Shown here one piece after another: positions 16,619 to 33,490 of a DNA stretch of 43,889 nt. The notes beneath the pieces were generated by a model. The model saw only the letters and a list, made by a program, of their open reading frames with translations, did not search any database and was not told the DNA's origin. Origin of the DNA: Gammaproteobacteria bacterium. Its GTDB lineage: Bacteria; Pseudomonadota; Gammaproteobacteria; Steroidobacterales; SZUA-146. Numbering within the stretch: position 1 is the first letter of the stretch; every line of letters starts with the position of its first letter. Where the stretch lies: positions 1 to 43,889 of the forward strand of contig JABDLQ010000184.1 of assembly GCA_013002925.1 (NCBI GenBank), written 5' to 3'. The translations under genes were made by a program, and so were the position numbers.

Positions 16619-17620
16619 TTAGCGGAAGTTTTCGAGACCCACAAACGTTCCGTCGTTTCGTTCGCACAAAGCGCGCATCAATATTGCAAAGCGAATTCCA
16701 GTTGCCTGCAATTGTGGCGCCTGCGAAAATATTGTCGGAAACCCAATCGCATGAATCCGGACCCGCCGCTTACCATCCGCATCCTTGCGGTTGAGCAAAT
16801 CCACCCGATCAACAACGCTCTGAATCGAGCGACCGGAAAACTCATCGCCAAACACATACAGACTGATTTTTTTATCTGGTGCATAAAAAGCATTGATTGC
16901 TTTGGTAATACCTTCGACGGGGCTACTATTGCTGAACGAATTCCAGGTGCGCATTCGCTCCACGATGGCTTTACGCCGTGCGGGCGTATCCGGAATCCAG
17001 CGATTGGCGTATCGGCTGAACATGTAATTTCCCATGTCGTTCATAATCTGTATGCCCTTGACCTTGGGATGTACATCCAGCGTTTCTTCCATTTTGCGCA
17101 CGGCCAGATTCCATGCGTAGTTGTACATGCTGCCAGAAGTATCAATGATAAATATGATGTATTCGGAATCGACCGGAATACCAGCGACCAGTTGATTGTT
17201 GACCGATTTTGACACCTCGCTGACCTTGAGACGCTGCATTTCTTCCGTGAGATCCTGCCGGGCACTCGCCAGTTTACCGGCAATGATATTGGCAACAGAT
17301 GAATCAGCGGTAGAAGCTTTATATTCGCCGCTTATACTGGACACATCGCCTTGCAGGCGCGCCAACCGCCGCTGCTCGCGTGAAAGTTGCTGTTGCTTTT
17401 CATCGAGCTCACGATTCAGCACTTTGACTTCACCGCGAATTTCAAAAAGCTGCTGCTGCAGGTCTCTGACCTTGCCCTGATAATCGACGGTTGCCTCTTC
17501 GAGCACGATTGGTTCGGTGATTTTAACAATCACCAGCAATAAAATTATGGCTCCAAAACCGCAGGCTATCGTGTCGAGAAAGCTGAGACTTATACCTTCG
17601 ATTTCGCGTCGGTTTTTCAT
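16619..17620 (-). CDS. ExbD/TolR-like TM helix + coiled coil + vWA-domain protein (paralog 2)
   Basis: The ORF-track ORF is 16619-17680. I prefer the ATG at 17620 (MKNRREIEGISLSFLDTIACGFGAIILLLVI), which parallels the N-terminus of the upstream paralog. About 110 aa of coiled coil follows. The vWA MIDAS motif is DTSGS (IFIIDTSGSM), with a later GDE. Confidence 0.8.
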   Translation of the reverse strand: MKNRREIEGISLSFLDTIACGFGAIILLLVIVKITEPIVLEEATVDYQGKVRDLQQQLFEIRGEVKVLNRELDEKQQQLSREQRRLARLQGDVSSISGEYKASTADSSVANIIAGKLASARQDLTEEMQRLKVSEVSKSVNNQLVAGIPVDSEYIIFIIDTSGSMYNYAWNLAVRKMEETLDVHPKVKGIQIMNDMGNYMFSRYANRWIPDTPARRKAIVERMRTWNSFSNSSPVEGITKAINAFYAPDKKISLYVFGDEFSGRSIQSVVDRVDLLNRKDADGKRRVRIHAIGFPTIFSQAPQLQATGIRFAILMRALCERNDGTFVGLENFR

Positions 17621-17642
17621 AATTTGTTCACCACCACGCCGG

Positions 17643-18743
17643 TCAAGGCCAATCCCGCGCTGGACTGATAAACGAACCATCAGTCAACTGTGCCAGTCGC
17701 CAGTACATCGGTGCAGCTCGTGCGTCGCCTTCCATTGGGAACAGGATGATGTTGACTGGAATTCCGCCTGCCAGGTTCCTTAATGCACTTTCAAAATGTT
17801 GAACGCGAGCTTTTGGCGATGCAGTCTTTCGAATTGGTAGCTTGTCACCCATCGTTGGCAGTCCGTCAACCAGTAGATAGATGTTGTCGGGTGGCGGACT
17901 CATATCGCGTGACACTTGCAAAGCGCGTGACAAACTGGTGCCTTTTGACGGCACCACTTCGTCAAGCCCCTGCAATGCCGCTGTCACCTGCTCAGGGTCC
18001 GCAGCATCCAGCCAGTCTCCTGCAGTTCCGTCGACGACCGGTCGGGCCGTCTGATTAAAGGTATAAATCTGAAACCCGATTTCTTTGGGTAACTTCGCAA
18101 TCAGCCAGCGCACGCTACCGACAGCGCGCCGCCACTTGACAGAGTTCCTTTGCTCCTGTTCCGACATGTTTCGCCGCCGGATAATATTTACGATAGTTTC
18201 ATCCAGCATGCTTGCAGAACTGTCCACCAGAAACAGTACTCTCTTGCCGCCAAGCTTGAGTCCTGTCAGATACAGGCGATCACCGGCGCCGATGATACGT
18301 TGCAAATCATCACCAACGTCATCCTGTTCCTGCTGACTACCCTGCAGTCGACGGGTAGCCTCTTCAAGACTTTTGATATCTGCCTTTAGCTTTTCAATGG
18401 CCTCACGTTCAGCTAACGTCGACTGATCCAGCCGCGCCAGCTCCGTTTTTTTGTCCTCAAGCACCTGCACTATCTGTTGAATCTGTCCTGCAATTTCAGA
18501 CTGGCGGCGCGTAACTGAATCGATTGTAGTGCGCAGTTCGAATAAATTTCGTTTTGACAATTCAACACGCTTGTCCATCAGGTTAACTTCAGAAATTAAT
18601 TTAACGTTAACCTGCGCATTAGTTTCTTTGGTGGCGTGATTGATAATCATAAAAAACAATACAACGGCACCGAAGCCACAACTCATGATGTCGAGAAACG
18701 ACAAACTGAAAACTGTAGCTTTACGCTTACGCCTGGCCATCAC
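17643..18743 (-). CDS. ExbD/TolR-like TM helix + coiled coil + vWA-domain protein (paralog 1)
   Basis: The N-terminus is MMARRKRKATVFSLSFLDIMSCGFGAVVLFFMI. About 120 aa of coiled coil follows. The vWA domain has a complete MIDAS set: DSSAS (LFLVDSSASM), GTS, and D in LLVDGLPT. The C-terminal motif TDGSF is shared with paralog 2 (NDGTF). Confidence 0.8.
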   Translation of the reverse strand: MMARRKRKATVFSLSFLDIMSCGFGAVVLFFMIINHATKETNAQVNVKLISEVNLMDKRVELSKRNLFELRTTIDSVTRRQSEIAGQIQQIVQVLEDKKTELARLDQSTLAEREAIEKLKADIKSLEEATRRLQGSQQEQDDVGDDLQRIIGAGDRLYLTGLKLGGKRVLFLVDSSASMLDETIVNIIRRRNMSEQEQRNSVKWRRAVGSVRWLIAKLPKEIGFQIYTFNQTARPVVDGTAGDWLDAADPEQVTAALQGLDEVVPSKGTSLSRALQVSRDMSPPPDNIYLLVDGLPTMGDKLPIRKTASPKARVQHFESALRNLAGGIPVNIILFPMEGDARAAPMYWRLAQLTDGSFISPARDWP

Positions 18744-20112
18744 TATCTACCTGCCGGATAATCCGCACTTCAATTCCGGGGTTACCGATTTGCACGCGAT
18801 CACCAACATTCAACGCTTGTGACCCGGACACACGTTTGCCATTGACGAACGTTCCATAGGTGCTTTTATCATCTATTACAACCTGCCCACCACGCTGACT
18901 GATCAGGCAATGCTGCCGGGAGATCCCTTTAACGACTCCACTGACCTGGTGGCCCCATTGATTGGCCGGCAAAGACGTCCCGAGCATCAGGGCCTCGTCC
19001 GATACCGGATACGCCAAGGCATCAACGAGCACATGAGTCCCTGCTTGCGCTACCCGCGAGGGAGAACTCGGGATCCGCCCGGTGTCCGTTGTCACCAGGC
19101 TGGGCGACGCTTGCCACGGTCGCTGCAATATCAGCGACAAATGCTCGTCGTCATGCACAAATGCATGGCTTTCCTGCAGTATATTTTTTGGCACGGCCAG
19201 TGGCGGTAGCTGCATGACACGGAATGCGGGATTGTGCTGTAGTTGGGCCATCAGCCCCGGTAAGTTTGCTACACGGGCGCTGAACATGACCGTCGTCACT
19301 TCACCCGCCAGTTCCCGTGCAGTTATTGCATTTATCACTGGCTGATACAGTCCCGCAACGGCACCCGCCAATGTGTCAGCGCTCAGCGTCGTTTCGTATT
19401 GCTTGTCTGCACTGGAAACGACGACATTGTCAGCGCCAGCGTTCAGAGTCTCGACAATACCGGGGATAGTGTCATACAACCACTGTTCCGAAGCTGCAGT
19501 ATGCATGGGATCAAAGCGGGTTGTTTTGACAAAGGTATCAGCTATGGCACTTGCCCATCGCGCTGTAAAATCCTTGAGACCAATGTTATGAAGTTGGGCT
19601 ACATCCGTGCGCCGCAACCCGTTCTCGACGCGCAGTTCCGTGATCAACAGGTTGTGTATCGTTGCATCAACGACCAACATACGGTTTCCGGGGACCGGAT
19701 GACTGACAGCCGCGAGTGCCGCATCCACGAGGCCACGCACCGGAATTTCTGCCCGCTCACAAATTCCCAGCAGCAATCCAAGTTGTTGCTTTGAAAAGCC
19801 TGGAGGTACGCCGATGATCACGTTGTCGGTAACCGCACGATATGGCTCATAAATACTTTGCAAATGCGTGTAGACAAGGTCTGCCGGAGTCAGCATGTTT
19901 GCAAAAGTCCGCTCGAGACGCTCCAGACTCAATTGTTGCCAAAAACTGCAGTTGATTTTACGGGGATGGATACGCGCCTGGGCAAAAGCCTCTGCGCCAA
20001 TCAGTAACTGCTCGTCATCCAGAACCGCGTAGCCTGGGCTCGCCTCCGCCACATGGGTCTCGGAAGCGGCAAGCACTCCCGAGTCATTGAGTTCCAGTGC
20101 CAGCAAGGCCAT
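18727..20112 (-). CDS. Hsp70/actin-fold-like N-terminal domain fused to a C-terminal FHA domain
   Basis: The ORF-track ORF runs to 20154. I prefer the ATG at 20112 (MALLALELNDSG...), 2 nt after the stop of the motA-like gene. ALELNDSGVL, IIGVPPGFSKQQ...AEIPVRGLVDAALAAV and LVVDATIHN align in order with Hsp70 phosphate-1, the VPAYF segment and phosphate-2, but the glycines are lost. The FHA core is GISRQHCLI...STYGTFVNGKRV...GDRVQIG. Confidence 0.78.
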   Translation of the reverse strand: MALLALELNDSGVLAASETHVAEASPGYAVLDDEQLLIGAEAFAQARIHPRKINCSFWQQLSLERLERTFANMLTPADLVYTHLQSIYEPYRAVTDNVIIGVPPGFSKQQLGLLLGICERAEIPVRGLVDAALAAVSHPVPGNRMLVVDATIHNLLITELRVENGLRRTDVAQLHNIGLKDFTARWASAIADTFVKTTRFDPMHTAASEQWLYDTIPGIVETLNAGADNVVVSSADKQYETTLSADTLAGAVAGLYQPVINAITARELAGEVTTVMFSARVANLPGLMAQLQHNPAFRVMQLPPLAVPKNILQESHAFVHDDEHLSLILQRPWQASPSLVTTDTGRIPSSPSRVAQAGTHVLVDALAYPVSDEALMLGTSLPANQWGHQVSGVVKGISRQHCLISQRGGQVVIDDKSTYGTFVNGKRVSGSQALNVGDRVQIGNPGIEVRIIRQVDSDGQA

Positions 20113-20114
20113 CG

Positions 20115-20912
20115 CTAACGCACCTGCAGCTGACTGACAAGGCGTTCGTCGCAATAATGTTCGGTGTCAAGCACCAGTCGTTCCTGCACGAGGGTTAGCT
20201 GATGCAACAGGAACATCAAAATGATACTGAGCAACAACGCTATAAACGTGGAATTAAACGCCACACCAAGACTGGCGGTAACGCCAGTGATATCACCTTC
20301 TACTGCTTTGTGGGCCTGACCGAGAGCTTCACCAATACCACGAACAGTACCTATAAAACCGATCGACGGGATCGCCCAGGCAATGTATCGCACCAGCGAC
20401 AATTCAGAATCCAGTCGGTCTGATTCGCCTTCGCAAAGCGTCCGCACGACTGTCGACACATCTTGGATATTGCGAGTCGAACGAAACCGGTGCAACGCGC
20501 TCAACAGCACGCGAGGCAGCAACAAGCCCGATTGATCCACCGGGAGTTCCTGCACAGTCCGCGAATAGGAACGGGTGTCTTCCGGTAGAATACTGACCCC
20601 CTCTGCAAGTGGAATCAGATCTTTTTCAAGCATTCGTCCTTCTTTGGTCGTCAGCGCAGCCTTGTATCCCATGATGGCAAGCGCCCAAAAAAACAATATA
20701 AAACAACATTCCTGTTCAAGGTCCTTGATCAGGATATACGGTGATCGTTCCGGGACATAATTTTCGTCTGCAGCGATCTGTTCAAGTTGCTGGGCGCGGA
20801 TATCGGCAGCTTTTGGGCGTATGACCAGTGTATAAACACCATGCACAATGACAATGGCAGTAATCAGTGCAAATATCTGGTAGGCAAACTCAATCGGTAA
20901 TTTTCGGTTCAT
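20115..20912 (-). CDS. MotA/TolQ/ExbB-family proton-channel protein
   Basis: 265 aa with N-terminal TM segments. The family-defining C-terminal pair of TM helices carries AIPSIGFIGTVRGIGEALG and LGVAFNSTFIALLLSIILMFLL. Confidence 0.85.
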   Translation of the reverse strand: MNRKLPIEFAYQIFALITAIVIVHGVYTLVIRPKAADIRAQQLEQIAADENYVPERSPYILIKDLEQECCFILFFWALAIMGYKAALTTKEGRMLEKDLIPLAEGVSILPEDTRSYSRTVQELPVDQSGLLLPRVLLSALHRFRSTRNIQDVSTVVRTLCEGESDRLDSELSLVRYIAWAIPSIGFIGTVRGIGEALGQAHKAVEGDITGVTASLGVAFNSTFIALLLSIILMFLLHQLTLVQERLVLDTEHYCDERLVSQLQVR

Positions 20913-20930
20913 TCTGGACAGCCTGGATGT

Positions 20931-21155
20931 TTAGATATCAATCGGAAATGAAATTTCGGTATCAGCATTGATTTTTTCCGAGGGAACGAATCGATCCTGC
21001 CTGGTTGCTGGCGCCGTTGTGGACTCAACCTCTTCCTCTGCAGTTGTCACGGCGGATTCATCTTCCTGACTCTCATCCTGCGCCGCGCTCAAAAGCGCAA
21101 ATGAAAGGCTGACAACTCCCAGCACGGTTTTTACGATCAGACCAAAATCTTTCAT
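20931..21155 (-). CDS. Small acidic secreted protein (74 aa)
   Basis: It has a signal peptide (VLGVVSLSFALLSAAQ) followed by an E/D/T-rich mature part ending in ISFPIDI. Its start is about 3 nt after the upstream stop. There is no homology-based call. Confidence 0.55.
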   Translation of the reverse strand: MKDFGLIVKTVLGVVSLSFALLSAAQDESQEDESAVTTAEEEVESTTAPATRQDRFVPSEKINADTEISFPIDI

Positions 21156-21158
21156 GAA

Positions 21159-23222
21159 TTACTCCAAATATCGACCAATCCGGAAGCCGAGATCAGGACG
21201 TCCCTGATCGGATGAGTCACGGTAAGTCGGCCGTAGCTCGCTGATTCTCGAATGTTGCCAGCTGGAGCCCCGAATCACATAGGCCGGCTGTGCCGGTGTA
21301 TTCGTTGCGAACGCGCTGGATCTGTAAATATCCTGAGTCCATTCAGAAACATTTCCCGCCATATCATAAAGGCCTGCAGGATCAGCGGCAAAATTTGCCA
21401 CCGGTGATGTGGCCGGAAAACCATCCACATAATTATCTATGACAGCACTTGTCAGTCCGAGTGCAGTGCGATCTGCGAAATTTCCAAAATCTGTCGGGGG
21501 CGTTACATCCTCGCCCCAGGGAAACAGAGTTAACTCGCGGTTTCCGGAAAAGCGCGCGGCCCAGGCCCATTCCGCCTCGCTCAGCAGGCGATAACCTATG
21601 TTTTTTGGCTCCGCCGGTTGCATGCGCCCACCCGCCCTGACATAGGCGGGCGGCAGGCCCTCCTGTTGACTCAGCCAGTTGCAGTATTGTGCTGCATCAT
21701 CCCAGGTCACGTTAACCACCGGATGATCGGGCGCATCCAGCGACACGCTAAAAAACATTCCGGAAGAATGTTCCGGGCGGAAGGCTTTAAATCGCTCGTT
21801 GGTTACTTCCTGTGTGCCGATGTAATACATGCGCGTGAGTTCAACTTTGCGCAATTGCTCATTGGATCGTCGGCCACGCACGCGTCTTGACGCACCCATC
21901 GAAAAAGCATGGGGCCTCATCAATATCAGCGTTTGACCGTCAGCAGTCTGAATTTTCGCCTTGCGTGCAAGCTCCGCTTCACGCGCCTCTTCCAGCGTCA
22001 GCAGTTTGACTGCAATCTCCTGCGGGGCTGCAGGTTTTGGTAATACGGTAATGAACGCCGGCGCGTACCCGGCGGCGCGAATTTCGAGTTGCTGATCACG
22101 CGCAGGAAGCTCGAGTTGTGCACCCGCCAGGCCAATCTGTTCGCCTGCGCTCCATACGCTTGCGCCAGATGGCGCATTAATCACGGTAATCAACCCTACT
22201 TGCGGGACCAGGGACCATTCCAGGTTGATATCTTCGTTGCTCGCTACTTTGATCGTTTCACTTATCTTGTCATACCCCACTTTCGTGACAGCAAGGGTAT
22301 AACTTTGTCCAGGCGGCAATTTCAACGTGCGCGGAGTGAGCCCGTAGTAACGCCCATCGATACTGATTGCCGCAGCCGCAGGTGTGGTTGACACTGTGAT
22401 GGATCCATCGGCTTTTTTCATCACGATGTCAGTCAATTCAAGGCGTTGCTCTGCCGCCAGGTTAAGCGTTTTAAACCAGCGTTTGTAGCCTGGCGCCCGC
22501 AGTGAAAGCCGATGCTCACCGGCAAGAATCTCAAACGTACCGGGAGTGTGACCGACAAGCGTTTCGCCAACATAGACGTTGGCAGTCACGGGCAGCGTTG
22601 AAATTTGCACGTCCGCCCAGTTTGGCCGTAAATCAACGGTTATCGTTTGGGATCGGCCAAGACCTTCTACCGTGACGTTGCCTGTCCAGGGCTGAAACCG
22701 CGGAGCTTCCACCTGCACAGGATAGTCGCCTGCGGGCACTTCGACAGTTCCATGCATATCCTTCAGGGTGACTTCATCGCCGACCCGTATCACCGCATTC
22801 GTGACATTGTCAGCAAACTCGAAATTCAGCTTGCCGGGAAGCTTTTTCAGCGTCAATTGAAATTTTTGAATGGCTTCGTCGTCGATCCGCAATGATTCGT
22901 GCAATGGATAGTAACCGGCCTTGTTTGCACTGACCTCAATTTCCCCCGGCAGCACAAGATAATGATCCTTCCAGGCGATTTGCAGCAACCCCGCTGAAAT
23001 ATTCAAGGTGTCAGCCCCGGGCTCGACCTGCACCCAGACAGACCGCGCTGCAAACACAAACCACAGCGCAAACAGCAGCGCTGCCAGCAAAGATAACGCC
23101 ATAACTTTTTTTGCACTCCAGCGCTTCTTCCGGACTTGCTCGGGAGCGCTTGGGGAATAATCAACGACTTCGATCGGACTAGCATGATCGGCCCCACCTG
23201 ATGTGGTGGCATCTGCCGGCAT
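21159..23222 (-). CDS. Membrane-anchored periplasmic protein: about five PEGA-like repeats + C-terminal FGE/SUMF1 (formylglycine-generating-enzyme-like) domain
   Basis: The N-terminal anchor is KKVMALSLLAALLFALWFVFAA. Repeated PEGA-type strands are KAGYYP, APRFQPW, APGYKRW, KVGYDKI and AAGYAP. FGE-domain motifs are NVTWDDAAQYCNWLS, YRLLSEAEWAWAAR, FPWG, GNVSEWTQD, IRGSSW and LGFRI. Confidence 0.85.
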   Translation of the reverse strand: MPADATTSGGADHASPIEVVDYSPSAPEQVRKKRWSAKKVMALSLLAALLFALWFVFAARSVWVQVEPGADTLNISAGLLQIAWKDHYLVLPGEIEVSANKAGYYPLHESLRIDDEAIQKFQLTLKKLPGKLNFEFADNVTNAVIRVGDEVTLKDMHGTVEVPAGDYPVQVEAPRFQPWTGNVTVEGLGRSQTITVDLRPNWADVQISTLPVTANVYVGETLVGHTPGTFEILAGEHRLSLRAPGYKRWFKTLNLAAEQRLELTDIVMKKADGSITVSTTPAAAAISIDGRYYGLTPRTLKLPPGQSYTLAVTKVGYDKISETIKVASNEDINLEWSLVPQVGLITVINAPSGASVWSAGEQIGLAGAQLELPARDQQLEIRAAGYAPAFITVLPKPAAPQEIAVKLLTLEEAREAELARKAKIQTADGQTLILMRPHAFSMGASRRVRGRRSNEQLRKVELTRMYYIGTQEVTNERFKAFRPEHSSGMFFSVSLDAPDHPVVNVTWDDAAQYCNWLSQQEGLPPAYVRAGGRMQPAEPKNIGYRLLSEAEWAWAARFSGNRELTLFPWGEDVTPPTDFGNFADRTALGLTSAVIDNYVDGFPATSPVANFAADPAGLYDMAGNVSEWTQDIYRSSAFATNTPAQPAYVIRGSSWQHSRISELRPTYRDSSDQGRPDLGFRIGRYLE

Positions 23223-25517
23223 CTATATGCGCTCCCGGCACATGATTTCATACCGGACGTCTGTCTCCCCGGGTGCCAACGCAATCGTCACGCGGACATC
23301 GCGAAACCCGGCACGTGTACCGACAGCGGTATATTCTCCGGGTCGCAATTCCAGCGTTCGACTGTTGAACGTGCCCATTTTACCCACCCGGTACACGGTC
23401 ACGTCAGTAGCCCCATCGGAGTTCAACGTCACGGTTACCGGCTGCCGGGTAAGCGCCATCAGGTTGCGTAGTTCTGCGGCTTGAGCATCCAGCCTGGCAT
23501 CACCGGCGTACGGTTGCAGACGAGTGAGCAATGCTTGCGCGCTGTTGTACGCACTGGCACTGGTCAATCGCATGGGTTCGCCAAGCAATGTTTGCAACTC
23601 TTCTTCCACATCTGCACGATTGCGCACACGGCGCACACCGTCACGGGCGCTTTGCAACGTGGGGTCCTGCTCCAGCGCCGCCTTGTACTGGCGCTCCGCT
23701 GCGCGCCAATCACCCCGTCCTTCCAGCACGCGCGCCTCCCCTTCCAGCCGATTGACGTCCTGCAATCGCACTGCGGTATCAAGCTGTTGCAACGCTTCTG
23801 TCACCTCACTGGCACCCGGGCGCAGTGAGCGCGCTCGTTCAAATGCACGGCGTGCGCGATCAAAATCAGATTTTTCGAGTGCTGCAAAACCTGCTGACAT
23901 ATGTCCGGAAAACGCACGTCTGGCACGCTGCCGCTGGATTCTGTTAATACCGTCGGTGGCGGCCTGCCACTGTGCATCCAGTTCCCCGGCTTGTTGATAG
24001 GCCGTCAGCGCCGCATCGTAGTCACCTGACTGCTCCAGTTCTTCCGCGCGGTCAACCAGAGCCAGTACTTCGTCAAGATTGGCAGCGCGTTCGAGACCCG
24101 TCTGAGCGCGCTCTGATGTCGCATCGATTTGCAGTACCGTCGAATATTTTTGATCTGCCAGAGCAGCATCTCCTGCAGCGATTGCGGCATCCGCTTCAGC
24201 CAGTGTGTCGGTCACAATCGTATCTGCGATGTCGCTCAGGTCCGCAGCGATGTCATGGCCCTCTGAGTATTTTGCCAGCGCTTGCTCATATTTTTTCTGC
24301 CGAAACAGTTGATCGCCAGCGATCGCCGCTTGCTTGATCTGATCAAAGCGCTCGGGTGCCCATACGATGGCCTTTTTGTCGTCGAGATAAAACTGTTTAT
24401 CGAGCAACTGTTCGAGCATTGACTCCGCGTCTTTTCGCATTTTGGCCTGCTGCGCCAGCTTCCATGGTTCAATATCAGTTGCCCGAGGTGGGCTCTGGGT
24501 GGCAACAGGTGCTGGCGTCACCGCAGAAGTGGGGGCATCGGCAGATGCGGTTACGGGTTCACGTTCGCCGACCCACCGAGGCACAACATAAAATAATGCA
24601 ACGAGTCCAATGAACCCATAGAGCAGGAGCAATGGCACCAGTCGTTTATGGCGTGTTGGCGGCGGCGCGGCGGCGCCGTGCGAAGCAGTGGAATTATTAC
24701 CCGGGTCAATCACCTCGATTCTGTCGTCTTCGGCTGTATCAAAGACAAACTCATCCGGGGGTACGGTCACATTGCCTTGCTCATCCAGTGCCTGACGCAA
24801 TGCGTCCGCAACAATTGCCATCCGGGCGGGACGCTGCTGAGCATCCGGATGCATGAGTTGCTCAACAAGTTCAGAAAGCGTGGCCCCCAGGTTCAGCGGA
24901 GGGCCTTCCTCATCCGGCCATCGACCTTCGGCCAATCGATACAACGCAACACCGAACGCATACATATCGTCACCGGGCTCGGGCGGCTCACCGTCACGTT
25001 GCGCCGGACTCATACTGCGCGAAGAACCACCACTGCGAAGCCCGGCGGCTCCCGATTCAGAGGCAATGCCAAAATCAATCAAGCGGGTATGTTTACGCTC
25101 GTCGAACAAAAAATTGCTCAGCTTTATATCGCGATGCACGATGCCCTGTTGATGTACATGGTCAAGTGCCTCTGCAATCTGGATTAGCGCCGGGAGAAAT
25201 TGTGCGTGGGGTCTGCCCGCGAGTTTTTCCAGGCTGCCACCGCTGAGATATTCGAGAGTGAGATAGGTAAAATTGTCATCAGCATGACACTCAAACGCAC
25301 GCACAATACCGGAATGAACACAACGCCCACACTGAGCAAATTCATTTTTTAAGAGGTTAACGCCGGTCACATCATCGCTGTTCGCGATTTTTATGGCCAC
25401 CCGCGACTTGAGCTGGTCATCCCGGGCAAGCCACACCTGGCAATGGGCGCTGGTGTGTAATAGCGCGAGAAGTGTATAACGGTCAGAAATTCGACGACCT
25501 TTCGCAAGAGGTTCCAT
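23223..25517 (-). CDS. Transmembrane Hanks-type Ser/Thr protein kinase with periplasmic TPR-like repeats and a C-terminal PEGA domain
   Basis: Kinase motifs are VAIK, HRDIKLSNFLF and DFGIA. The Gly-rich loop is degenerate (LHTSAHCQVW). The TM segment is LVPLLLLYGFIGLVALFYVV. Helical repeats rich in A/L/Q/Y follow. The C-terminus reads LELRPGEYTAVGTRAGFRDVRVTI (PEGA-like). Its stop TAG is directly followed by the next ATG. Confidence 0.85.
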   Translation of the reverse strand: MEPLAKGRRISDRYTLLALLHTSAHCQVWLARDDQLKSRVAIKIANSDDVTGVNLLKNEFAQCGRCVHSGIVRAFECHADDNFTYLTLEYLSGGSLEKLAGRPHAQFLPALIQIAEALDHVHQQGIVHRDIKLSNFLFDERKHTRLIDFGIASESGAAGLRSGGSSRSMSPAQRDGEPPEPGDDMYAFGVALYRLAEGRWPDEEGPPLNLGATLSELVEQLMHPDAQQRPARMAIVADALRQALDEQGNVTVPPDEFVFDTAEDDRIEVIDPGNNSTASHGAAAPPPTRHKRLVPLLLLYGFIGLVALFYVVPRWVGEREPVTASADAPTSAVTPAPVATQSPPRATDIEPWKLAQQAKMRKDAESMLEQLLDKQFYLDDKKAIVWAPERFDQIKQAAIAGDQLFRQKKYEQALAKYSEGHDIAADLSDIADTIVTDTLAEADAAIAAGDAALADQKYSTVLQIDATSERAQTGLERAANLDEVLALVDRAEELEQSGDYDAALTAYQQAGELDAQWQAATDGINRIQRQRARRAFSGHMSAGFAALEKSDFDRARRAFERARSLRPGASEVTEALQQLDTAVRLQDVNRLEGEARVLEGRGDWRAAERQYKAALEQDPTLQSARDGVRRVRNRADVEEELQTLLGEPMRLTSASAYNSAQALLTRLQPYAGDARLDAQAAELRNLMALTRQPVTVTLNSDGATDVTVYRVGKMGTFNSRTLELRPGEYTAVGTRAGFRDVRVTIALAPGETDVRYEIMCRERI

Positions 25518-25585
25518 ATCAGATGTCGCATTCAGTGGTTAGTTATTAATCGGGAACACCGGTGTGGATCGGGGCTTTAAAAAAA

Positions 25586-26815
25586 TTAAAGATCTTCCAG
25601 GTGTCTGAGCTGGGGCTGAGGCATTTCACTGTCCTGCACTGTCAGACCGGTTTCTGATTCATAAATTTCTCTGAGCAGCCGCCGCCATTTGTCGTATTGC
25701 TGGTCAGCCGTTCCGGTCAGTTCAATGGTACGGCCCTCTACCTCAACGAGCATCGGCTGCACCTCCTGGACGAAAGAGTCCGCCAGTTCCTTGAGCGCAA
25801 CAGCATGCAAATTGGTCTGTTTGCTGAGGTCATAACCACCTTTCACCAGATTACCCCCCACCACCATAGCGGCACGACCGCCATAGTATTCGGCAGCATT
25901 GTCCGCTTTGTTTTGCATCACGGCGCCACCAACCGCTACCAGAACACCAGCGGCCATGGTTAATCGGGACGTTCTCACCAACTCGCGCAGTGCGATGGTC
26001 TCCTCATAACTGTAACGCCGCCAGTCCTCGTAGGGCTGAGACATTTTATTGTGGAAGCCCTCGTAATGTTCATCAAGTATGTCGATGAATGCGTATTCAC
26101 GGTCGCGAATTTTGCCTACGCGACCCAACATTGGGTCATCTTCCGCTGGCAATCGTTTGATATCCACATACCCGTTGTCATCAACTTCATAATATTCAGA
26201 GTACGCATAAGGAGAAATTTCGGCGGCAAATTTAAGCTTGGAAATGGTGCGAATCCGTTCCAGTTCGCCGGCATCCAACTCACGGCGAAGCGCCAGCAGG
26301 TCGTTGGAAATATTATTGTACAGGTCCTGAAAAGGCTCTTCATTGCCGGCAACCTCTTCCTCATAGGACATGCCCGACGCAGAGTCCGAGTAACGTTTTT
26401 CCAGCCATAAGCGCCCACTGGCATCACTTGCACGAACATCGACGACTAATACCTCGCCGTCGGACTTAATGATGTCACCACCAATGAGCAAATCGACCGC
26501 TTCGGTGGGTCGCGGCAAAATTCGCACTGCCCCCCAGTTTTCAGTTGCTTCCAGCGTGCGGCGTAACTCGTAGGGTATGTAGGCGCTTTCAGCATTGCGT
26601 ACCCTGGCGTTTATAAACTTTTTCTCGGCTTTTTTCTGATCTTCGGGCACGCCAGGATCGAACATCAGAATTCCGATATCCAACAATTGCTCTTCTGGCA
26701 ACACTTCGGCCGCTTTTATGGCAGGCTCGCTGGAAACGTTGACAACCGTGGTAGATACGCACCCCGTCGTTGCTGCAAGCAGCAAAATAAAAATTAGACT
26801 GTTAGTTTGTCTCAA
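25586..26815 (-). CDS. Lipoprotein of unknown function (409 aa)
   Basis: The signal peptide plus lipobox is LLLAATTGC. It has an apparent TTG start, with AGGAG 12 nt upstream. A Gly/Ala-rich hydrophobic patch (MAAGVLVAVGGAVM...MVVGGNLVKGG) lies near the C-terminus. Confidence 0.65.
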   Translation of the reverse strand: MRQTNSLIFILLLAATTGCVSTTVVNVSSEPAIKAAEVLPEEQLLDIGILMFDPGVPEDQKKAEKKFINARVRNAESAYIPYELRRTLEATENWGAVRILPRPTEAVDLLIGGDIIKSDGEVLVVDVRASDASGRLWLEKRYSDSASGMSYEEEVAGNEEPFQDLYNNISNDLLALRRELDAGELERIRTISKLKFAAEISPYAYSEYYEVDDNGYVDIKRLPAEDDPMLGRVGKIRDREYAFIDILDEHYEGFHNKMSQPYEDWRRYSYEETIALRELVRTSRLTMAAGVLVAVGGAVMQNKADNAAEYYGGRAAMVVGGNLVKGGYDLSKQTNLHAVALKELADSFVQEVQPMLVEVEGRTIELTGTADQQYDKWRRLLREIYESETGLTVQDSEMPQPQLRHLEDL

Positions 26816-26827
26816 CTTGATTTTTCA

Positions 26828-26910
26828 CTCCTGGTTTACTGCTACGGGTTGACTACTACCAGTTTACGACTCCTGGTTTAGTGCTCCTGGTTTAGTACTC
26901 CTGGTAAAAC
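26828..26910. repeat. Six-unit 14-bp tandem repeat (CTCCTGGTTTAGTG on +, CACTAAACCAGGAG on the coding - strand) filling the intergenic gap
   Basis: Units start at 26828, 26842, 26856, 26870, 26884 and 26898. Units 1, 4 and 5 are perfect or near-perfect and unit 6 is truncated (CTCCTGGTAAAAC). Units 2 and 3 are degenerate (9/14 and 8/14 matches). Confidence 0.7.
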
Positions 26911-26911
26911 A

Positions 26912-28498
26912 TCAATTACCGGTCGCATTGCGGTAATTACGATACTCCTCCCAAAGCCTGGCACGTAACACCGGATCGGCTTCCGCCTGCGCCGCTTCGC
27001 GCAGTTGCCGGGCCACGACATCATCACCCTGCGGATCCGGTAAGTCCCCCGGGTCCACTGGTGCGTTATTGCCGGTTCCCCGCATACCGTTACTGTCTTC
27101 TTCACCGCCCGATGTACGCGCAGTGCGTTGCGTGCCGGTTTCATTTGTGGGATCACCCTGGCCCATCGCTACCGAGCCACTGCCGCCCGGTTCCGGTGAT
27201 CCCGCAGGATCGAAGCCTTCGGTTCCGCCACCCATTTGTCCATCGCCTTTGCGCATGGCCTGCCGCTCTTCTGACAATTCACCGTCAAAATCTGCCAGCG
27301 TACGGTCCAACTCTCCCTCCAGCTCACCCACTTCGCGGCGCGTGCTGCGGCGGCTGGCTGGCAGATTTTGTGTGTCAGAACGACGCGCCAGTACCTCGCG
27401 GGCACTCTCATATTCCGGGGAATTAAAGTCCGGCAATCCGCCCTGTTCGATCACACTGGCGAGGACCTCGACAGACATCTCGAGAAACTCCACCATTGCT
27501 TCCATATCCGTGAACACCAGCATGCTGTCATCGTTCGCATCCGCCGTATCTTCCGGAATATAGCCAAGCTCGACTGCTGCTGTAATCAAGGCGTTGCGAG
27601 CAGCCATCAGATCTTCCGCCGCTTTGCTTAGCGCTTCCCGCGCAGTTTGTACCTCTTCACCATCATCCGGCGCAGCTTTAACTTCAGGATCAAGATCGGC
27701 GCTGACGCTTTCCAGTCGCTCACTTCCTGATTTCAAATCGTCACTGGCCCGGCGCTCACGTTTGCGTTGTTCTTTTGCTGCACGCCGTTCTGCCCGACTT
27801 TGCTTCTGTTGGGCAGCAGCCTCAGCACTGGCTGCGCTTTCCGCCTCAAGCGCTTCCTGTGCCTCTTTCACAGATGCCGCGGCTCTTGCCACTGCCGCGG
27901 CCGCCTGGGCCACCGGATCTGCGCTACCGCCGGCCGCAGGCTCTGCAAATGGATCGTAATTTGGCTCGTCACTGCTGCTCGCAGATGCTTCCGCCTGCTC
28001 TTCGCTGGCGTCATCTGTCGACTCTCCGCCTTCATTCTTATCACGCTCGGCGATCTTTTCCCGCGCCCGTGCCATCGCCACGGCCGCCCGGGATACTGCA
28101 TCTGCAGCGCTGGCGACCGCCTCACCCACTTCAGCCAGTTCCTGATCACCACTGGAGGGGTCATTGGCTGATTCCCTGGCATCGTTTCCGCTCTGCCCCT
28201 GCTCCTGCGATTTGTCCCCTTGATTGGCCGTGCGTTCCCCCTGGCTTGAAGAGCTTGAATCCGACGAGCTGCTGTCACCACTCTGGCTCGATGGCGTAGA
28301 TGGGGAGCTTGACGGAGAGCTTGATGGCGAACTGGATGGAGCGCTTGGTGGAGCGCTTGATGGTGAGCTGCTGGGACTGGAACTTGGCGACGGCATGCCG
28401 CTACCCGGCTTTGACGTCTGAGTCTTGCACCCCGTAGATATCAACAAGAATGTGGCAAGCACAGCTGCGAAGATTCCGCGCGTTATCAGACGATGCAT
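26912..28498 (-). CDS. Low-complexity lipoprotein (Ser/Pro-rich linker, then acidic Ala/Glu-rich helical regions)
   Basis: The ORF-track ORF runs to 28753. I prefer the ATG at 28498 (MHRLITRGIFAAVLATFLLISTGC, signal peptide plus lipobox), with AGGAGA upstream. Then comes SSSPSSSPSSAPPSAPSSSPSSSPSSSPSTPSS, followed by long A/E/D-rich sequence. The conserved-looking C-terminus is DDVVARQLREAAQAEADPVLRARLWEEYRNY. Confidence 0.65.
   Translation of the reverse strand: MHRLITRGIFAAVLATFLLISTGCKTQTSKPGSGMPSPSSSPSSSPSSAPPSAPSSSPSSSPSSSPSTPSSQSGDSSSSDSSSSSQGERTANQGDKSQEQGQSGNDARESANDPSSGDQELAEVGEAVASAADAVSRAAVAMARAREKIAERDKNEGGESTDDASEEQAEASASSSDEPNYDPFAEPAAGGSADPVAQAAAAVARAAASVKEAQEALEAESAASAEAAAQQKQSRAERRAAKEQRKRERRASDDLKSGSERLESVSADLDPEVKAAPDDGEEVQTAREALSKAAEDLMAARNALITAAVELGYIPEDTADANDDSMLVFTDMEAMVEFLEMSVEVLASVIEQGGLPDFNSPEYESAREVLARRSDTQNLPASRRSTRREVGELEGELDRTLADFDGELSEERQAMRKGDGQMGGGTEGFDPAGSPEPGGSGSVAMGQGDPTNETGTQRTARTSGGEEDSNGMRGTGNNAPVDPGDLPDPQGDDVVARQLREAAQAEADPVLRARLWEEYRNYRNATGN
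28290..28390. repeat. Imperfect 12-bp tandem repeats encoding the (S-S-S/A-P)n linker of the lipoprotein
   Basis: Units on the + strand, from 28305 onward: GAGCTTGACGGA, GAGCTTGATGGC, GAACTGGATGGA, GCGCTTGGTGGA, GCGCTTGATGGT. Confidence 0.65.
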
Positions 28499-28817
28499 GA
28501 GTGTCTCCTGGTAAGAACTCTCTATAGAGTAGACGGTCAAATCCGCAATTCGTTTCGCAGAAACATGAATTTTTACAGCTTTTTTGGCGTAAATCGACAA
28601 ATTATCGACGTATCTCAGTATGCCCGGAAAACCAGCTGTTAATTCATAAGCTTGGAGAGTCGTGAATAAGGTATTATATCGGGACGTGCACAAACTGTTA
28701 AATTCATGAATATCATGGCGATGGACGGAACTGGCCGGTTGGTTTAGCCTCAAATGATCAGAGTGCGGTCTGTTACCGCATCGGCGCCCGCATGAAATCG
28801 CCGAGGCATTATACGAG

Positions 28818-30208: not shown

Positions 30209-31660
30209 TCACGGCCGGTTACCGGTTGATTCTTCATTAGTATCCGCGTCCGTCTCAGGCGCTGGAGCCACAGCTACGCCATCGGTATTGCCGTCTAATA
30301 ACTTTGCGGCATCGTCTTCCTCGTTATCGGACACTACTGCCGCCTGACGTTTTGCAAGAATCGCATCCCTGGCACTGTCAAAATTATATTTTATCGTTTT
30401 TATGACATTATCCGTCGCGACTGGCACGCCATCGAGAATACGGGGGCGGTAACGGGACGACCTGACATTGGAGCGCAATGCGGTCATTAACTGGCTTGAA
30501 CCCACATCGTCTTTTATGACGTTCAGATCGCGCACGCGACCGTGTTTGTCTACAGTGAAAGAGAAAACAATTTCAAGGTTCCCCGGCGGCAGTCGCAGGA
30601 TCTGGCTGGGCCGCCAGTTGGCCACCGGATGTGCCTCAAACTCAAGCTCGAGCGGTTCATCAAACATACTATCCACATCGAGCGGTGTTTCGCGCACAGA
30701 ATTCAACTTGTTCCAGGCCTGCTCGTAGGCCTGCTGGGCGCGTCCGCGATGACCGCCACGCACATGCCAGTCACCCAGTCTGGCCCACGCACGAGCGACA
30801 TCCGCCATGTCAGGATATTCCTGGTTTTCATACAGGCTGATGACACGTTTCAGGGCGCGTACACCCTCCCCTGACATAACCCGGCGGTCGCGTGGAGTTT
30901 GTAAAAAACTGTTCGCTATATCGTTGAGAGGGCCTGCCAGCCGAATATCATTCGGCCCATAAGCGGCTTCCAGAATGGCCAGAGCACGACGGTATTGCTT
31001 ACGCGCGTGGTCTTCCCGTTGCATGATCATGTGCCATCTGGCCATGTGTTTGAGTGCCGGCGTTAACTGCGGCGTGTTGCCATAGTTCTCCTCATTTGCA
31101 TGCAGCAAAAAGCGCTGTTCACGGTCTGCTGCCGACAAATCTTCCGTCCAGGCATAGATCTCAGTCAGCCGATTCGATATGTTGGTTTGCACCAGGTTAA
31201 ATACACCCTCGTTACGATGAGTAATATCCTTGGCGCGCAGGTACACGCTGAGTGCTGCGTCATACTGCTTCAGGGTACTCAGGGTATTGCCGAGACCTTC
31301 CAGCGGTGCGCGTAATTCGCTGGCAAAGACCCCGATGTTTTCCTCCAGCAGCTTGATCGCGCGTTCAAAATGAGAGGCAGATTTCAATAACTGGTCGAGA
31401 CCGAAATATACGTGACCAAGACATGTAATCGGCGCTACCAGGTTCACCGACCCTTCACCCTCCGCTGCAGCCACAGCAGCGTGCCACTGGTCGCAGTGTT
31501 CACCGGCTTCTTCAAAACGATTTTCTTCGAGCAGATCGGCCGCCCGCGTAAACGCACTGACACGGTCATCGGAGGCCGCAGGTACACTCTCTGCCAGCGC
31601 ATGTGAACTACCGAAGATCACTATCGGCAGCAGCCGAATCATCAGGTTAATTTTTACCAT
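30209..31660 (-). CDS. Periplasmic TPR-repeat protein with a TonB C-terminal-like domain
   Basis: It has a cleavable-looking signal peptide (IRLLPIVIFGSSHALA). TPR-like helical repeats span aa ~40-330. The C-terminus (LEIVFSFTVDKHGRVRDLNVIKDDVGSSQLMTALRSNVRSSRYRPRILDGVPV) resembles the TonB_C fold. An acidic tail follows. Confidence 0.7.
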   Translation of the reverse strand: MVKINLMIRLLPIVIFGSSHALAESVPAASDDRVSAFTRAADLLEENRFEEAGEHCDQWHAAVAAAEGEGSVNLVAPITCLGHVYFGLDQLLKSASHFERAIKLLEENIGVFASELRAPLEGLGNTLSTLKQYDAALSVYLRAKDITHRNEGVFNLVQTNISNRLTEIYAWTEDLSAADREQRFLLHANEENYGNTPQLTPALKHMARWHMIMQREDHARKQYRRALAILEAAYGPNDIRLAGPLNDIANSFLQTPRDRRVMSGEGVRALKRVISLYENQEYPDMADVARAWARLGDWHVRGGHRGRAQQAYEQAWNKLNSVRETPLDVDSMFDEPLELEFEAHPVANWRPSQILRLPPGNLEIVFSFTVDKHGRVRDLNVIKDDVGSSQLMTALRSNVRSSRYRPRILDGVPVATDNVIKTIKYNFDSARDAILAKRQAAVVSDNEEDDAAKLLDGNTDGVAVAPAPETDADTNEESTGNRP

Positions 31661-33156
31661 TATTTTGAGTCTATGATTTTAATCTTCTGGCCAGGCTGCG
31701 GCTCGCCTTCCGGATAAAAGTTATTGAGCAAGCGCAACTGCTGCTCCACGTAGTCCGTCAACGGCGAGGCCGTCGCCAGGGTAGCCATGGTGGTTGCAGC
31801 ATTTGCTTCGATGACAGCAATATGCGGTATCCGCGCCGAACGCTTGCTCTGCCCGTCAAGCTTGCGCATCGATTTGATCGTGCTAAGCATGCGCCAGTCA
31901 TTGCGCTTCTGGATGGCTTCGGTTTGACTGGCACCGGCAAAAACATAGGCATAACGATCATCCGTAAACACCGCATATCGAACAGTTCCGCGCCCAAATG
32001 GAGAGTTTGCATTGGGCGCGAGCGCTGTATATCCCACCAGGCCATCGGCCTGCAACGTACGCCCGTCCTGCAAGTTGGACAAGCCGATTTTTTTCGTCAG
32101 TATATCTAATGGGCTCAAGGTTTCCTTCAGCGGTTGACGACTTAATATCAACAGTGACTTGCGATCCGGAGCACTACTTTCGAGACGGCCCCGGCTCTCG
32201 GCGATTGCCCAGCCCGACGGATAGACCATGCCAATGCCAAACCGTGCGTGCCGAAACTCATCTTCGGTTATCACCCCGCCGGCTCCCACTTTACCAAACA
32301 CCATGCCATCCAGATGGCTGAGGAACACATCCCTGTTATCAGCGAAAACTGCGGACTCAGTGAGTTTATCCGCCTCCTGCACCACTTTGCGCAAACGGGT
32401 GTCGTTGTCGGGGTGGGTTGAAAAAATCCCGTGATAGACGCGTGGTTCGCGTCCTTCTTCAGCTGCCCGTTCGATTTCAAAGGCTTCCTGATGCTTGAGA
32501 ATCTTGACCACCTCAATCATCGCACTCGATGGATAACCGGAGCGCACCAGATACTCTGCACCCTCACGATCTGCTTCCAGCTCTTTATCGCGGCCATAAC
32601 TGCTTATATAGGCACCGGCTATAGCACCAGTTGCGACACCAGCAACACCGCCGGTTGCCGCATTCGCAATCCCACCGAGCACATTCATCAATGCGCCACG
32701 ACTGTGTTGACCCACTGCATGGCGCGCGGTTACGTGACCAATTTCATGGCCCAGCACAGCCGCCAGCTCAGCTTCAGAATTCAGGTAAGCCAACAGTCCA
32801 CGTGATACGTAAATGTATCCGCCCGGAGTCGCAAAGGCGTTGACCAAATCACTATCGATCACTGTAAATGTATATTCTATATTTGGCCGGTCACTATTAC
32901 GCACCAGCTTTTGACCGATGTCATTGACATATTCCTGCAGATCGGGGTTCGGATACGCACGATACTGGGTCATGATCTGGGGATGCAGTTCCTGCCCCAT
33001 CTTGATCTCGTCTTCCTCCGACATCATCACGAAGTCGACCCCTCCGGTGGCAGGGTTGGTGGCGCAGGCGCCGAGCCCGGAAACCAGCATCAGAACCAGC
33101 GTCAGACGCGTGAACCACGACCCGAAAGCTGATACCTGTAAATCGTCGCGATGCAT
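31660..33156 (-). CDS. M48-family zinc metallopeptidase lipoprotein
   Basis: The ORF-track ORF runs to 33228. I prefer the ATG at 33156 (MHRDDLQV...), followed by the lipobox LVSGLGAC. The HExxH motif is HEIGHVTARH, with a downstream Glu-rich segment (ELEADREGAEY). Its stop overlaps the next start as TAATG. Confidence 0.85.
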   Translation of the reverse strand: MHRDDLQVSAFGSWFTRLTLVLMLVSGLGACATNPATGGVDFVMMSEEDEIKMGQELHPQIMTQYRAYPNPDLQEYVNDIGQKLVRNSDRPNIEYTFTVIDSDLVNAFATPGGYIYVSRGLLAYLNSEAELAAVLGHEIGHVTARHAVGQHSRGALMNVLGGIANAATGGVAGVATGAIAGAYISSYGRDKELEADREGAEYLVRSGYPSSAMIEVVKILKHQEAFEIERAAEEGREPRVYHGIFSTHPDNDTRLRKVVQEADKLTESAVFADNRDVFLSHLDGMVFGKVGAGGVITEDEFRHARFGIGMVYPSGWAIAESRGRLESSAPDRKSLLILSRQPLKETLSPLDILTKKIGLSNLQDGRTLQADGLVGYTALAPNANSPFGRGTVRYAVFTDDRYAYVFAGASQTEAIQKRNDWRMLSTIKSMRKLDGQSKRSARIPHIAVIEANAATTMATLATASPLTDYVEQQLRLLNNFYPEGEPQPGQKIKIIDSK

Positions 33157-33490
33157 AGTCAAGACCTCAATCTCCCGTTTCATGAATCCATACCAACCGC
33201 CTGTAAATACGATGATACACCGTCGCACGGGCGAATCCGGCTTTTGCCCAGCTCATATTATAATGACCTGAAATTACAGAAAATGTTTCAATTCCTGGCG
33301 CTTGCAGCCGACTCCGGGCCTCCGGGCCCGGATGAGGCGCCGTAGCACCAGGTGAAGTACGACACACCGGCATCAACCAATGACCGGAGGCAATCTGTCG
33401 TATTGCTGCTATAATCCGCGCAGCTTTTGTATCGGGAACCGCGCTGCGGTCACCGCCTGTTAACATTTCAACAGATAGATGAGGATAATT

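Follow-up and report, generated by a model that had tools for sequence, protein, structure and literature searches.

Which proteins, if any, occupy the pore of a MotA/ExbB-type channel whose operon carries no gene for ExbD, TolR or MotB? This question is raised by a stretch of 43,889 nucleotides from a Gammaproteobacteria bacterium (NCBI GenBank assembly GCA_013002925.1, contig JABDLQ010000184.1, positions 1 to 43,889), which was analysed whole and is called the window below. On its minus strand, nine co-directional and tightly packed genes extend from 16619 to 28753; the last two encode paralogous proteins with a vWA domain, named here vWA1 (paralog 1) and vWA2 (paralog 2), and a third (20115-20912) encodes a channel subunit. 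An original prediction, made from the letters of the DNA, gave both vWA proteins an ExbD/TolR-like N-terminus with a membrane-embedded Asp and proposed that they pair as inner subunits of the channel. We consider it probable, with some reserve, that the vWA pair takes the inner place held elsewhere by ExbD, TolR or MotB, in a proton-driven motor of the MotA/ExbB type with the 20115-20912 product. We read them in this way because each has an invariant Asp in its membrane helix and because their neighbourhood constantly includes a MotA/TolQ-type channel that has no other partner.

The idea of a vWA protein as the inner subunit of such a motor is not new, as it was published in 2025 as a computational prediction (PMC12204202; Mol Biol Evol, June 2025; section 8, Fig. 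4c,d). That paper predicts a class called TPH-vWA, in which a vWA domain is tethered to the membrane by a TolR/ExbD-like trans-pore helix (TPH). The family co-occurs tightly with tolQ homologs in the absence of tolR, exbD and motB genes, has a conserved Asp and no SHLS motif in the helix, is mostly encoded as heterologous pairs and is found mainly in Proteobacteria (PMC12204202). AlphaFold 3 models in the same paper place a TPH-vWA pair inside a TolQ-like pentamer, with a ring of threonines around the Asp pair.

The vWA pair and its membrane helix

The two proteins have a common layout. A basic stub leads into one transmembrane (TM) helix, in which an Asp is invariant; a helical stalk follows, roughly 100 residues long, and then the vWA domain:

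17643-18743, minus strand: vWA1, 366 residues from a GTG or 365 from the ATG at 18740; stub, helix, stalk and vWA domain
18636-18710, minus strand: TM helix region of vWA1, residues 12-36, FSLSFLDIMSCGFGAVVLFFMIINH; invariant Asp18 at codon 18690-18692
18342-18641, minus strand: predicted periplasmic helical stalk of vWA1, residues 35-134; a helix in the AlphaFold2 model
17646-18266, minus strand: vWA domain of vWA1, residues 160-366; Pfam VWA_2 (5.7e-7) and Foldseek
16619-17620, minus strand: vWA2, 333 residues from the ATG at 17620 (MKNRREIEG...); layout as in vWA1
17519-17593, minus strand: TM helix region of vWA2, residues 10-34, ISLSFLDTIACGFGAIILLLVIVKI; invariant Asp16 at codon 17573-17575
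16622-17173, minus strand: vWA domain of vWA2, residues 150-333; AlphaFold2 and Foldseek, with invariant columns

The N-termini quoted in the original prediction match the open reading frames (ORFs) of the window exactly. The basic stub, the SLSFLD motif and the hydrophobic helix that it described are kept across orthologs, with one TM helix in each protein. By BLASTP, the paralogy that it asserted is real but distant (E 8e-10, 21% identity, chiefly over the N-terminal 180 residues). The likely start of vWA1 is the ATG at 18740; the resulting 365 residues fit the lengths of its orthologs (362-367 residues), and the gene then overlaps the 3′ end of the upstream FHA gene, stop codon included, by 14 nucleotides. 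The longest ORF of vWA2 (16619-17680, 353 residues) almost certainly does not mark the true start. This start is placed at the ATG at 17620, because the vWA2 homologs among the matches listed (n=120), which are all 331-338 residues long, all begin at the corresponding position, and because a Shine-Dalgarno-like GGTGGTGA lies about 8 nucleotides upstream.

We compared the pair in 80 genomic loci. These belong to Gammaproteobacteria, Desulfobacterales, Myxococcales and Acidobacteriota, counted here as four phyla. The Asp is retained in 80/80 vWA1 orthologs and in all vWA2 orthologs, and in every copy of either paralog it lies inside [basic stub]-F-S-L-S-F-L-D-x-x-x-C-G-(F/L)-G-A. The conservation of this residue, on which the original prediction depended, therefore holds in both paralogs and in all four groups. 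In the alignments of closer sequences, D18, C22, G23 and G25 are invariant among 29 vWA1 orthologs (47-82% identity), as are D16, C20, G21, F22, G23 and A24 among 28 vWA2 orthologs (60-91% identity). The small-residue motif CGFGAxx may allow tight packing between the helices of the two paralogs.

A hydropathy scan finds a single TM helix in each protein, with the best 19-residue window at 16-34 in vWA1 and 14-32 in vWA2, both starting F-L-D. The corresponding windows of the E. coli proteins start L-L-D in TolR and F-I-D in ExbD, so that the Asp is the third residue in all four. The ExbD and TolR sequences quoted in the original prediction, with Asp25 and Asp23, agree with those of E. coli K-12. 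The mean number of lysines plus arginines in the N-terminal stub is 3.9 in vWA1 orthologs and 4.0 in vWA2 orthologs, against 1.9 and 0.2 in the 15 residues that follow the helix. Since these residues are concentrated in the stub, the sequences indicate an N-in topology with the vWA heads in the periplasm, in agreement with the earlier placement by the positive-inside rule. Over their first 17 residues, the two helices are almost the same; the motifs at the helix exit differ and are separately conserved, INH in vWA1 and K..EP in vWA2. The conserved exit proline of vWA2 lies at Asp+21, compared with Asp+14 in ExbD and TolR.

AlphaFold2 models built with ortholog alignments extend the TM helix into a long helix, covering residues 15-134 in vWA1 and residues 14-103 and 110-133 in vWA2. 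In both models a low-confidence linker follows the stalk and leads to a confident alpha/beta domain, for which the predicted local distance difference test exceeds 90 in vWA1. Only generic coiled-coil families of Pfam and NCBIfam match the vWA1 stalk. In Foldseek searches against PDB, all top matches of both models are vWA/MIDAS (metal ion-dependent adhesion site) domains (E 1e-6 for vWA1, 3e-7 for vWA2); together they include the anthrax toxin receptor, alpha2-delta, ITIH1, Rpn10, vWF A3 and integrin I domains, with ITIH1, Rpn10, vWF A3 and alpha2-delta vWA domains among those of vWA2. Pfam VWA_2 is significant for vWA1 alone (5.7e-7); the value for vWA2 (0.0078) is under the cut-off, but the Foldseek matches settle its assignment as a vWA domain. 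The original prediction that a coiled coil and then a vWA domain replace the ExbD periplasmic domain is thus borne out by the predicted stalks and folds. Its MIDAS motifs also stand in both paralogs, with D174, S176, S178, T269 and D293 invariant among the 29 vWA1 orthologs, and D160, S162, S164 and D259 invariant among the 28 vWA2 orthologs, where the position of the middle Thr is assigned without certainty. The C-terminal motif (T/N)DG(S/T)F, said to be shared by the two proteins, fared less well: G-(S/T)-F is conserved among orthologs, but the remainder is not. As a side observation, seven vWA1 homologs (P0023, P0033, P0065, P0072, P0099, P0101 and P0103) carry precomputed Pfam assignments to PF24161 or PF24487, which are absent from the scan of the window vWA1.

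The channel gene and the case for a motor

The motor reading is supported most strongly by context: the channel is always present, it has no other partner, its pore threonines are kept, and the paralogs occur together.

20115-20912, minus strand: MotA/ExbB/TolQ-family channel subunit, 265 residues; Pfam PF01618 (1.8e-13); T189 at codon 20346-20348 and T222 at codon 20247-20249

When the channel is aligned with E. coli TolQ by hhalign (86% probability), T189 falls on T145 and T222 on T178, and both threonines are invariant in 69 orthologs. The protein resembles MotA in topology, with four apparent TM helices (13-31, 69-87, about 176-196 and about 214-242), although its best sequence match is the three-helix TolQ; we regard four helices as probable.

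To describe the surroundings, the nine window proteins were compared with all ORFs of the 80 loci, and presence was scored only where the flank sufficed. The channel was present in 66/66 loci and vWA2 accompanied vWA1 in 69/72. The same survey found the PEGA/FGE protein in 52/52, the Ser/Thr kinase in 51/51, the 409-residue lipoprotein in 46/47, the 613-residue protein in 36/42 and the FHA protein in 65/71. As the original prediction stated, the FHA gene separates the vWA pair from the channel gene in the window; in the 6/71 loci without it, the channel gene directly adjoins vWA1. Independent gene calls on a 2-Mb contig gave the same nine genes, with unrelated genes after them. Neither E. coli queries nor a hidden Markov model (HMM) of 122 TolR/ExbD proteins found an ExbD, TolR or MotB homolog in the 12,133 ORFs of the 80 loci and the window, a search that covered 10 kb around. 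A match of E. coli TolR to a small ORF in one locus (L072, E 3e-4) was attributed to signal-peptide and low-complexity similarity.

The absence of a tolR or exbD gene that could supply a core bears on one rival explanation, in which the vWA proteins are TonB/TolA-like and dock outside a complete motor. A precedent of a kind exists, since a separate vWA family with the SHLS motif adjoins tolQR-like genes (PMC12204202). The helices of the window pair, however, contain an Asp and neither His nor SHLS, and a long helix, not a proline-rich linker, makes up the stalk. We consider such docking very improbable.

How far the vWA helices resemble those of ExbD and TolR is less clear. The HMM was built from 122 diverse proteins obtained by a representative search, as a search with E. 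coli TolR gave only near-identical enterobacterial sequences. With default filters, it matched no vWA protein at E<=10. With the HMMER filters off, its top match was a vWA2 ortholog (E 0.21), and 13/29 of the best sub-threshold matches were vWA2 orthologs, which are mutually related and none of which is individually significant. Alignment of the vWA N-termini with the N-terminal region of TolR/ExbD by hhalign gave a score of 17.1 (P 0.0018), with Asp on Asp and a 7-residue gap opposite CGFGAxx. Shuffling of the columns lowered the score to 8.0 +/- 1.7, and 0/200 shuffles reached 17.1. The reversed profile scored 11.8, the TM anchor of the kinase 10.1 and that of the 613-residue protein 9.5. 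Full-length vWA alignments led hhalign to align unrelated regions, and a CGFG match of the N-terminal profile to NDUFB4 among PDB sequences was judged to be chance.

Several points weigh against the motor reading. Pfam PF02472 matched neither the full proteins at E<=0.1 nor the 28 N-termini at E<=10, and a profile of these N-termini, searched against PDB sequences at E<=10, matched no ExbD, TolR, MotB or ZorB chain. The hhalign probability is only 14.6% and falls short of significance; 5/200 shuffles confined to the TM block reached 17.1 (11.2 +/- 2.5), and the TM anchor of the PEGA/FGE protein reached 12.9. The helix of both paralogs contains a 7-residue insertion relative to ExbD/TolR, the invariant C-G-F-G-A-x-x. 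The published support is likewise predictive only (PMC12204202), and our own results fit a heterodimer and two homodimeric stators alike.

The N-terminal similarity that was originally proposed thus survives in part, as the hhalign score exceeds those of the anchors (9.5-12.9) only marginally, while HMMER finds nothing. We read the resemblance as weak, in register and slightly above that of a generic anchor, which is insufficient for family membership. The pair has the single N-in TM helix, the conserved Asp near its cytoplasmic end and the MotA/ExbB/TolQ channel in the same operon that are expected of ExbD/TolR; it has neither a family-profile match nor a periplasmic domain of the ExbD/TolR type. 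In function, the two proteins are probably equivalents of ExbD/TolR; by sequence, they do not belong to that family.

It might instead be supposed that the N-termini are ordinary signal anchors whose Asp is kept for a different interaction (the TM helices of the kinase and of the PEGA/FGE protein are two conceivable partners), and that the channel acts alone or with a partner encoded elsewhere. The result with HMMER, the weak hhalign alignment and the position of the FHA gene between the pair and the channel gene in most loci are all compatible with this explanation. An invariant charge and an invariant 9-residue motif, held in both paralogs across four phyla, are however atypical of a passive anchor, and no other single-pass protein of the operon has an acidic residue inside its TM helix. 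Conservation of the channel's threonine ring and the lack of an ExbD-like ORF in the 80 loci also argue against it, and we judge it improbable.

Proposed mechanism and the nine-gene operon

In the motor that we propose, the 20115-20912 product would surround the vWA pair, presumably as a pentamer. Each paralog would contribute one N-in TM helix with a protonatable Asp (D18 or D16), and the two helices would occupy the pore of the channel oligomer, with the Asp residues facing the threonine ring (T189, T222), where they would bind and release protons. Proton flow would rotate or pull the helix pair, and the stalk, about 15 nm long (100 residues x 0.15 nm), would pass this movement across the periplasm to the MIDAS vWA heads. 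Near the outer membrane, these heads could use their metal sites to grip an acidic ligand. The nature of the ligand is speculative, and either the C-terminal peptide of the small secreted protein or one of the lipoproteins might serve. From the cytoplasmic side, the motor is probably controlled through phosphothreonine by a membrane Ser/Thr kinase and the Hsp70-like/FHA protein; the cytoplasmic loop of the channel (residues 88-175) is a candidate substrate of the kinase. The motor would belong, as one module, to a conserved nine-gene system of the envelope. We infer the insertion of the helices in a pentamer, their heterodimeric pairing and the coupling to protons, and likewise the ligand and the regulation.

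We favour a 1:1 heterodimer, because both paralogs are nearly always present and their stalks are matched in length. Alternatively, each paralog could be homodimeric, which would give two kinds of stator sharing one channel protein. ExbD, TolR and MotB, the canonical inner subunits, form homodimers, and with the first 17 residues of the helices so alike, either could fit the pore. The strict co-occurrence of the paralogs (69/72 loci), the near constancy of their lengths with matched stalks, and the separate conservation of the exit motifs INH and K..EP speak for the heterodimer, and two homodimeric stators seem to us unlikely.

The remaining genes of the operon are as follows:

18727-20112, minus strand: Hsp70/actin-like and FHA protein, cytoplasmic, with no TM helix predicted; C-terminal FHA domain (Pfam 1.1e-13)
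20931-21155, minus strand: small secreted protein, 74 residues; signal peptide, acidic linker and conserved C-terminus
21159-23222, minus strand: PEGA/FGE protein, periplasmic, with an inner-membrane anchor (one N-terminal helix); three PEGA domains and an FGE-sulfatase-fold domain (Pfam)
23223-25517, minus strand: Ser/Thr protein kinase (Pfam Pkinase 3e-27); one TM helix at 294-312 and a TPR C-terminal region
25586-26815, minus strand: conserved lipoprotein, 409 residues; lipobox ...TTGC
26912-28753, minus strand: putative lipoprotein (the 613-residue protein); long Ser/Pro/Ala/Glu-rich low-complexity region and conserved C-terminus

With a profile built from 10 orthologs, the N-terminal domain of the FHA protein (about 380 residues) finds the nucleotide-binding domain of the Hsp70 protein SSB1 at E 2.6e-4, over profile positions 79-293. 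A D-x-G phosphate-1-like motif is kept (D10, G12), and a second glycine-rich motif is not obvious. The small secreted protein ends in F-x-P-(S/T)-E-x-(I/V)-x-x-(D/E)-x-x-(V/I)-x-F-P-(V/T)-D-I, conserved to the last residue; an ORF of 70-160 residues with a variable acidic linker and this ending fills the same slot in 55/61 loci, and no Pfam family matched the protein. It is possible that its acidic C-terminus is the ligand of the vWA metal sites.

FGE enzymes carry a catalytic cysteine pair in the C-terminal segment of the fold. The corresponding RGSSWQHSRISELRPTYRD segment of the PEGA/FGE protein contains no cysteine, and the protein is therefore probably non-catalytic. A search of PDB sequences found about equal similarity to FGE enzymes (7e-14) and to PorK (5e-13), and the top-scoring NCBIfam match was GldK/PorK (3.3e-26, under the model's cut-off). 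Two genes for conserved putative lipoproteins head the operon, and neither product belongs to a family of Pfam, NCBIfam or PDB. The 409-residue protein has no Pfam, NCBIfam or PDB match, and its profile finds no relative among PDB sequences; the 613-residue protein, which likely starts at M86 (28498), has no match in Pfam. Upstream of the operon, past two plus-strand genes, the minus strand encodes, at 30209-31660, a TPR protein that weakly matches TonB_C (E 0.0013) and, at 31660-33228, an M48 peptidase. A plasmid search for a cultured host gave no match.

A wider reading takes the channel and the vWA pair as the force-transmitting core of a distinct, phosphorylation-regulated machine that spans the envelope and comprises all nine gene products. 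In such a machine, the kinase would act together with the Hsp70-like/FHA protein as a clutch or assembly factor, the PEGA/FGE protein would be a PorK/GldK-like structural element, the two lipoproteins would probably lie in the outer membrane, and the peptide of the small protein would be the vWA ligand. We advance this reading tentatively, and would sooner doubt it than rely on it.

The family at issue is large and wholly uncharacterized. At 90% identity, vWA1 is matched by more than 6,700 clusters and vWA2 by at least 8,000, and at least 575 species-representative genomes carry the family, which is common in marine and sediment Gammaproteobacteria, Desulfobacterales and Acidobacteriota. If the motor reading is true, the MotA/ExbB motor family would be extended to a proton-binding inner subunit fused to an adhesion-type vWA head. 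The operon also suggests handles for study, with a kinase/FHA switch on the cytoplasmic side and a defined candidate peptide ligand on the periplasmic side.

Comparison with known systems

The closest known counterpart is the TPH-vWA class, the only description of such a system in the literature searched (PMC12204202). The window pair shows every feature stated for this class, namely the tethered vWA domain, the Asp, the lack of SHLS and His, the heterologous pair, the linkage to a tolQ-like gene without tolR, exbD or motB, and the threonine ring; the comparison with the Idiomarina loihiensis seed was by description only. The paper mentions neither a kinase, FHA/Hsp70-like protein, PEGA/FGE (sulfatase-fold) protein, lipoproteins or small secreted protein, nor an FHA gene between the channel and vWA genes. 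What is added here is a confirmed member and the context of its nine-gene operon, and no new principle.

A known defence system, such as Zorya ZorAB, was rejected as an identity, as PADLOC gave no real matches; its ZorA2 model reaches no better than E 0.0093, on the TM region of the channel, and the rest are generic kinase and coiled-coil matches. Membrane-anchored bacterial vWA proteins also occur as BatA and BatB of the aerotolerance operon, and BatB is among the structural matches of vWA1. The Bat operon includes MoxR and DUF58 genes and has no MotA-like channel. With no MoxR gene in the window operon, this identity was ruled out, and BatA/BatB differ further in having neither an Asp-bearing single helix nor a stalk.

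With ExbD/TolR and ExbB/TolQ, the window system shares a short basic cytoplasmic stub and an N-in helix in which the Asp lies equally deep. In this helix, F-(I/L)-D-(V/I)-M resembles P-F-I-D-V-M of ExbD, and the channel belongs to the MotA_ExbB family and keeps both pore threonines. Unlike ExbD/TolR, the pair lacks the ExbD periplasmic domain and a significant profile match and carries the CGFGAxx insertion; it has a vWA head on a stalk of about 100 residues, is encoded by two paralogs in place of one gene, and has no TonB/TolA partner.

GldM/PorM, the inner dimeric subunit of the GldL/GldM (PorL/PorM) motor, is anchored by a single TM helix and extends far through the periplasm toward the outer membrane; the candidate inner subunits of the window share this plan. 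The FGE-fold protein of the operon, without catalytic cysteines, resembles GldK/PorK, the ring protein of the type IX secretion system, about as closely as it does FGE enzymes (PorK 5e-13). However, GldM has no sequence relation to the vWA proteins, the key acidic residue of GldLM is on GldL and not on the inner subunit, and the window FGE-fold protein, in contrast to GldK/PorK, is anchored in the inner membrane and has PEGA domains.

In the Agl-Glt gliding machinery of Myxococcus, AglR/AglQ/AglS combine a single MotA/TolQ-like channel with two inner subunits that are TolR-like and differ from each other, and the machinery involves the FHA-containing GltG and a vWA adhesin. The window operon likewise has one channel with two different candidate inner subunits, an FHA protein and vWA proteins. 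In contrast to the window pair, AglQ and AglS are small, ordinary proteins of the TolR-like type. The vWA domain there belongs to a separate protein, an adhesin of the outer membrane, and the match of GltG to the window FHA protein is confined to the FHA domain. If the nine-gene reading were true, the operon would encode a new functional class of proton-driven envelope machine, to be set beside Ton, Tol-Pal, the flagellar stator, Agl-Glt, GldLM and Zorya.

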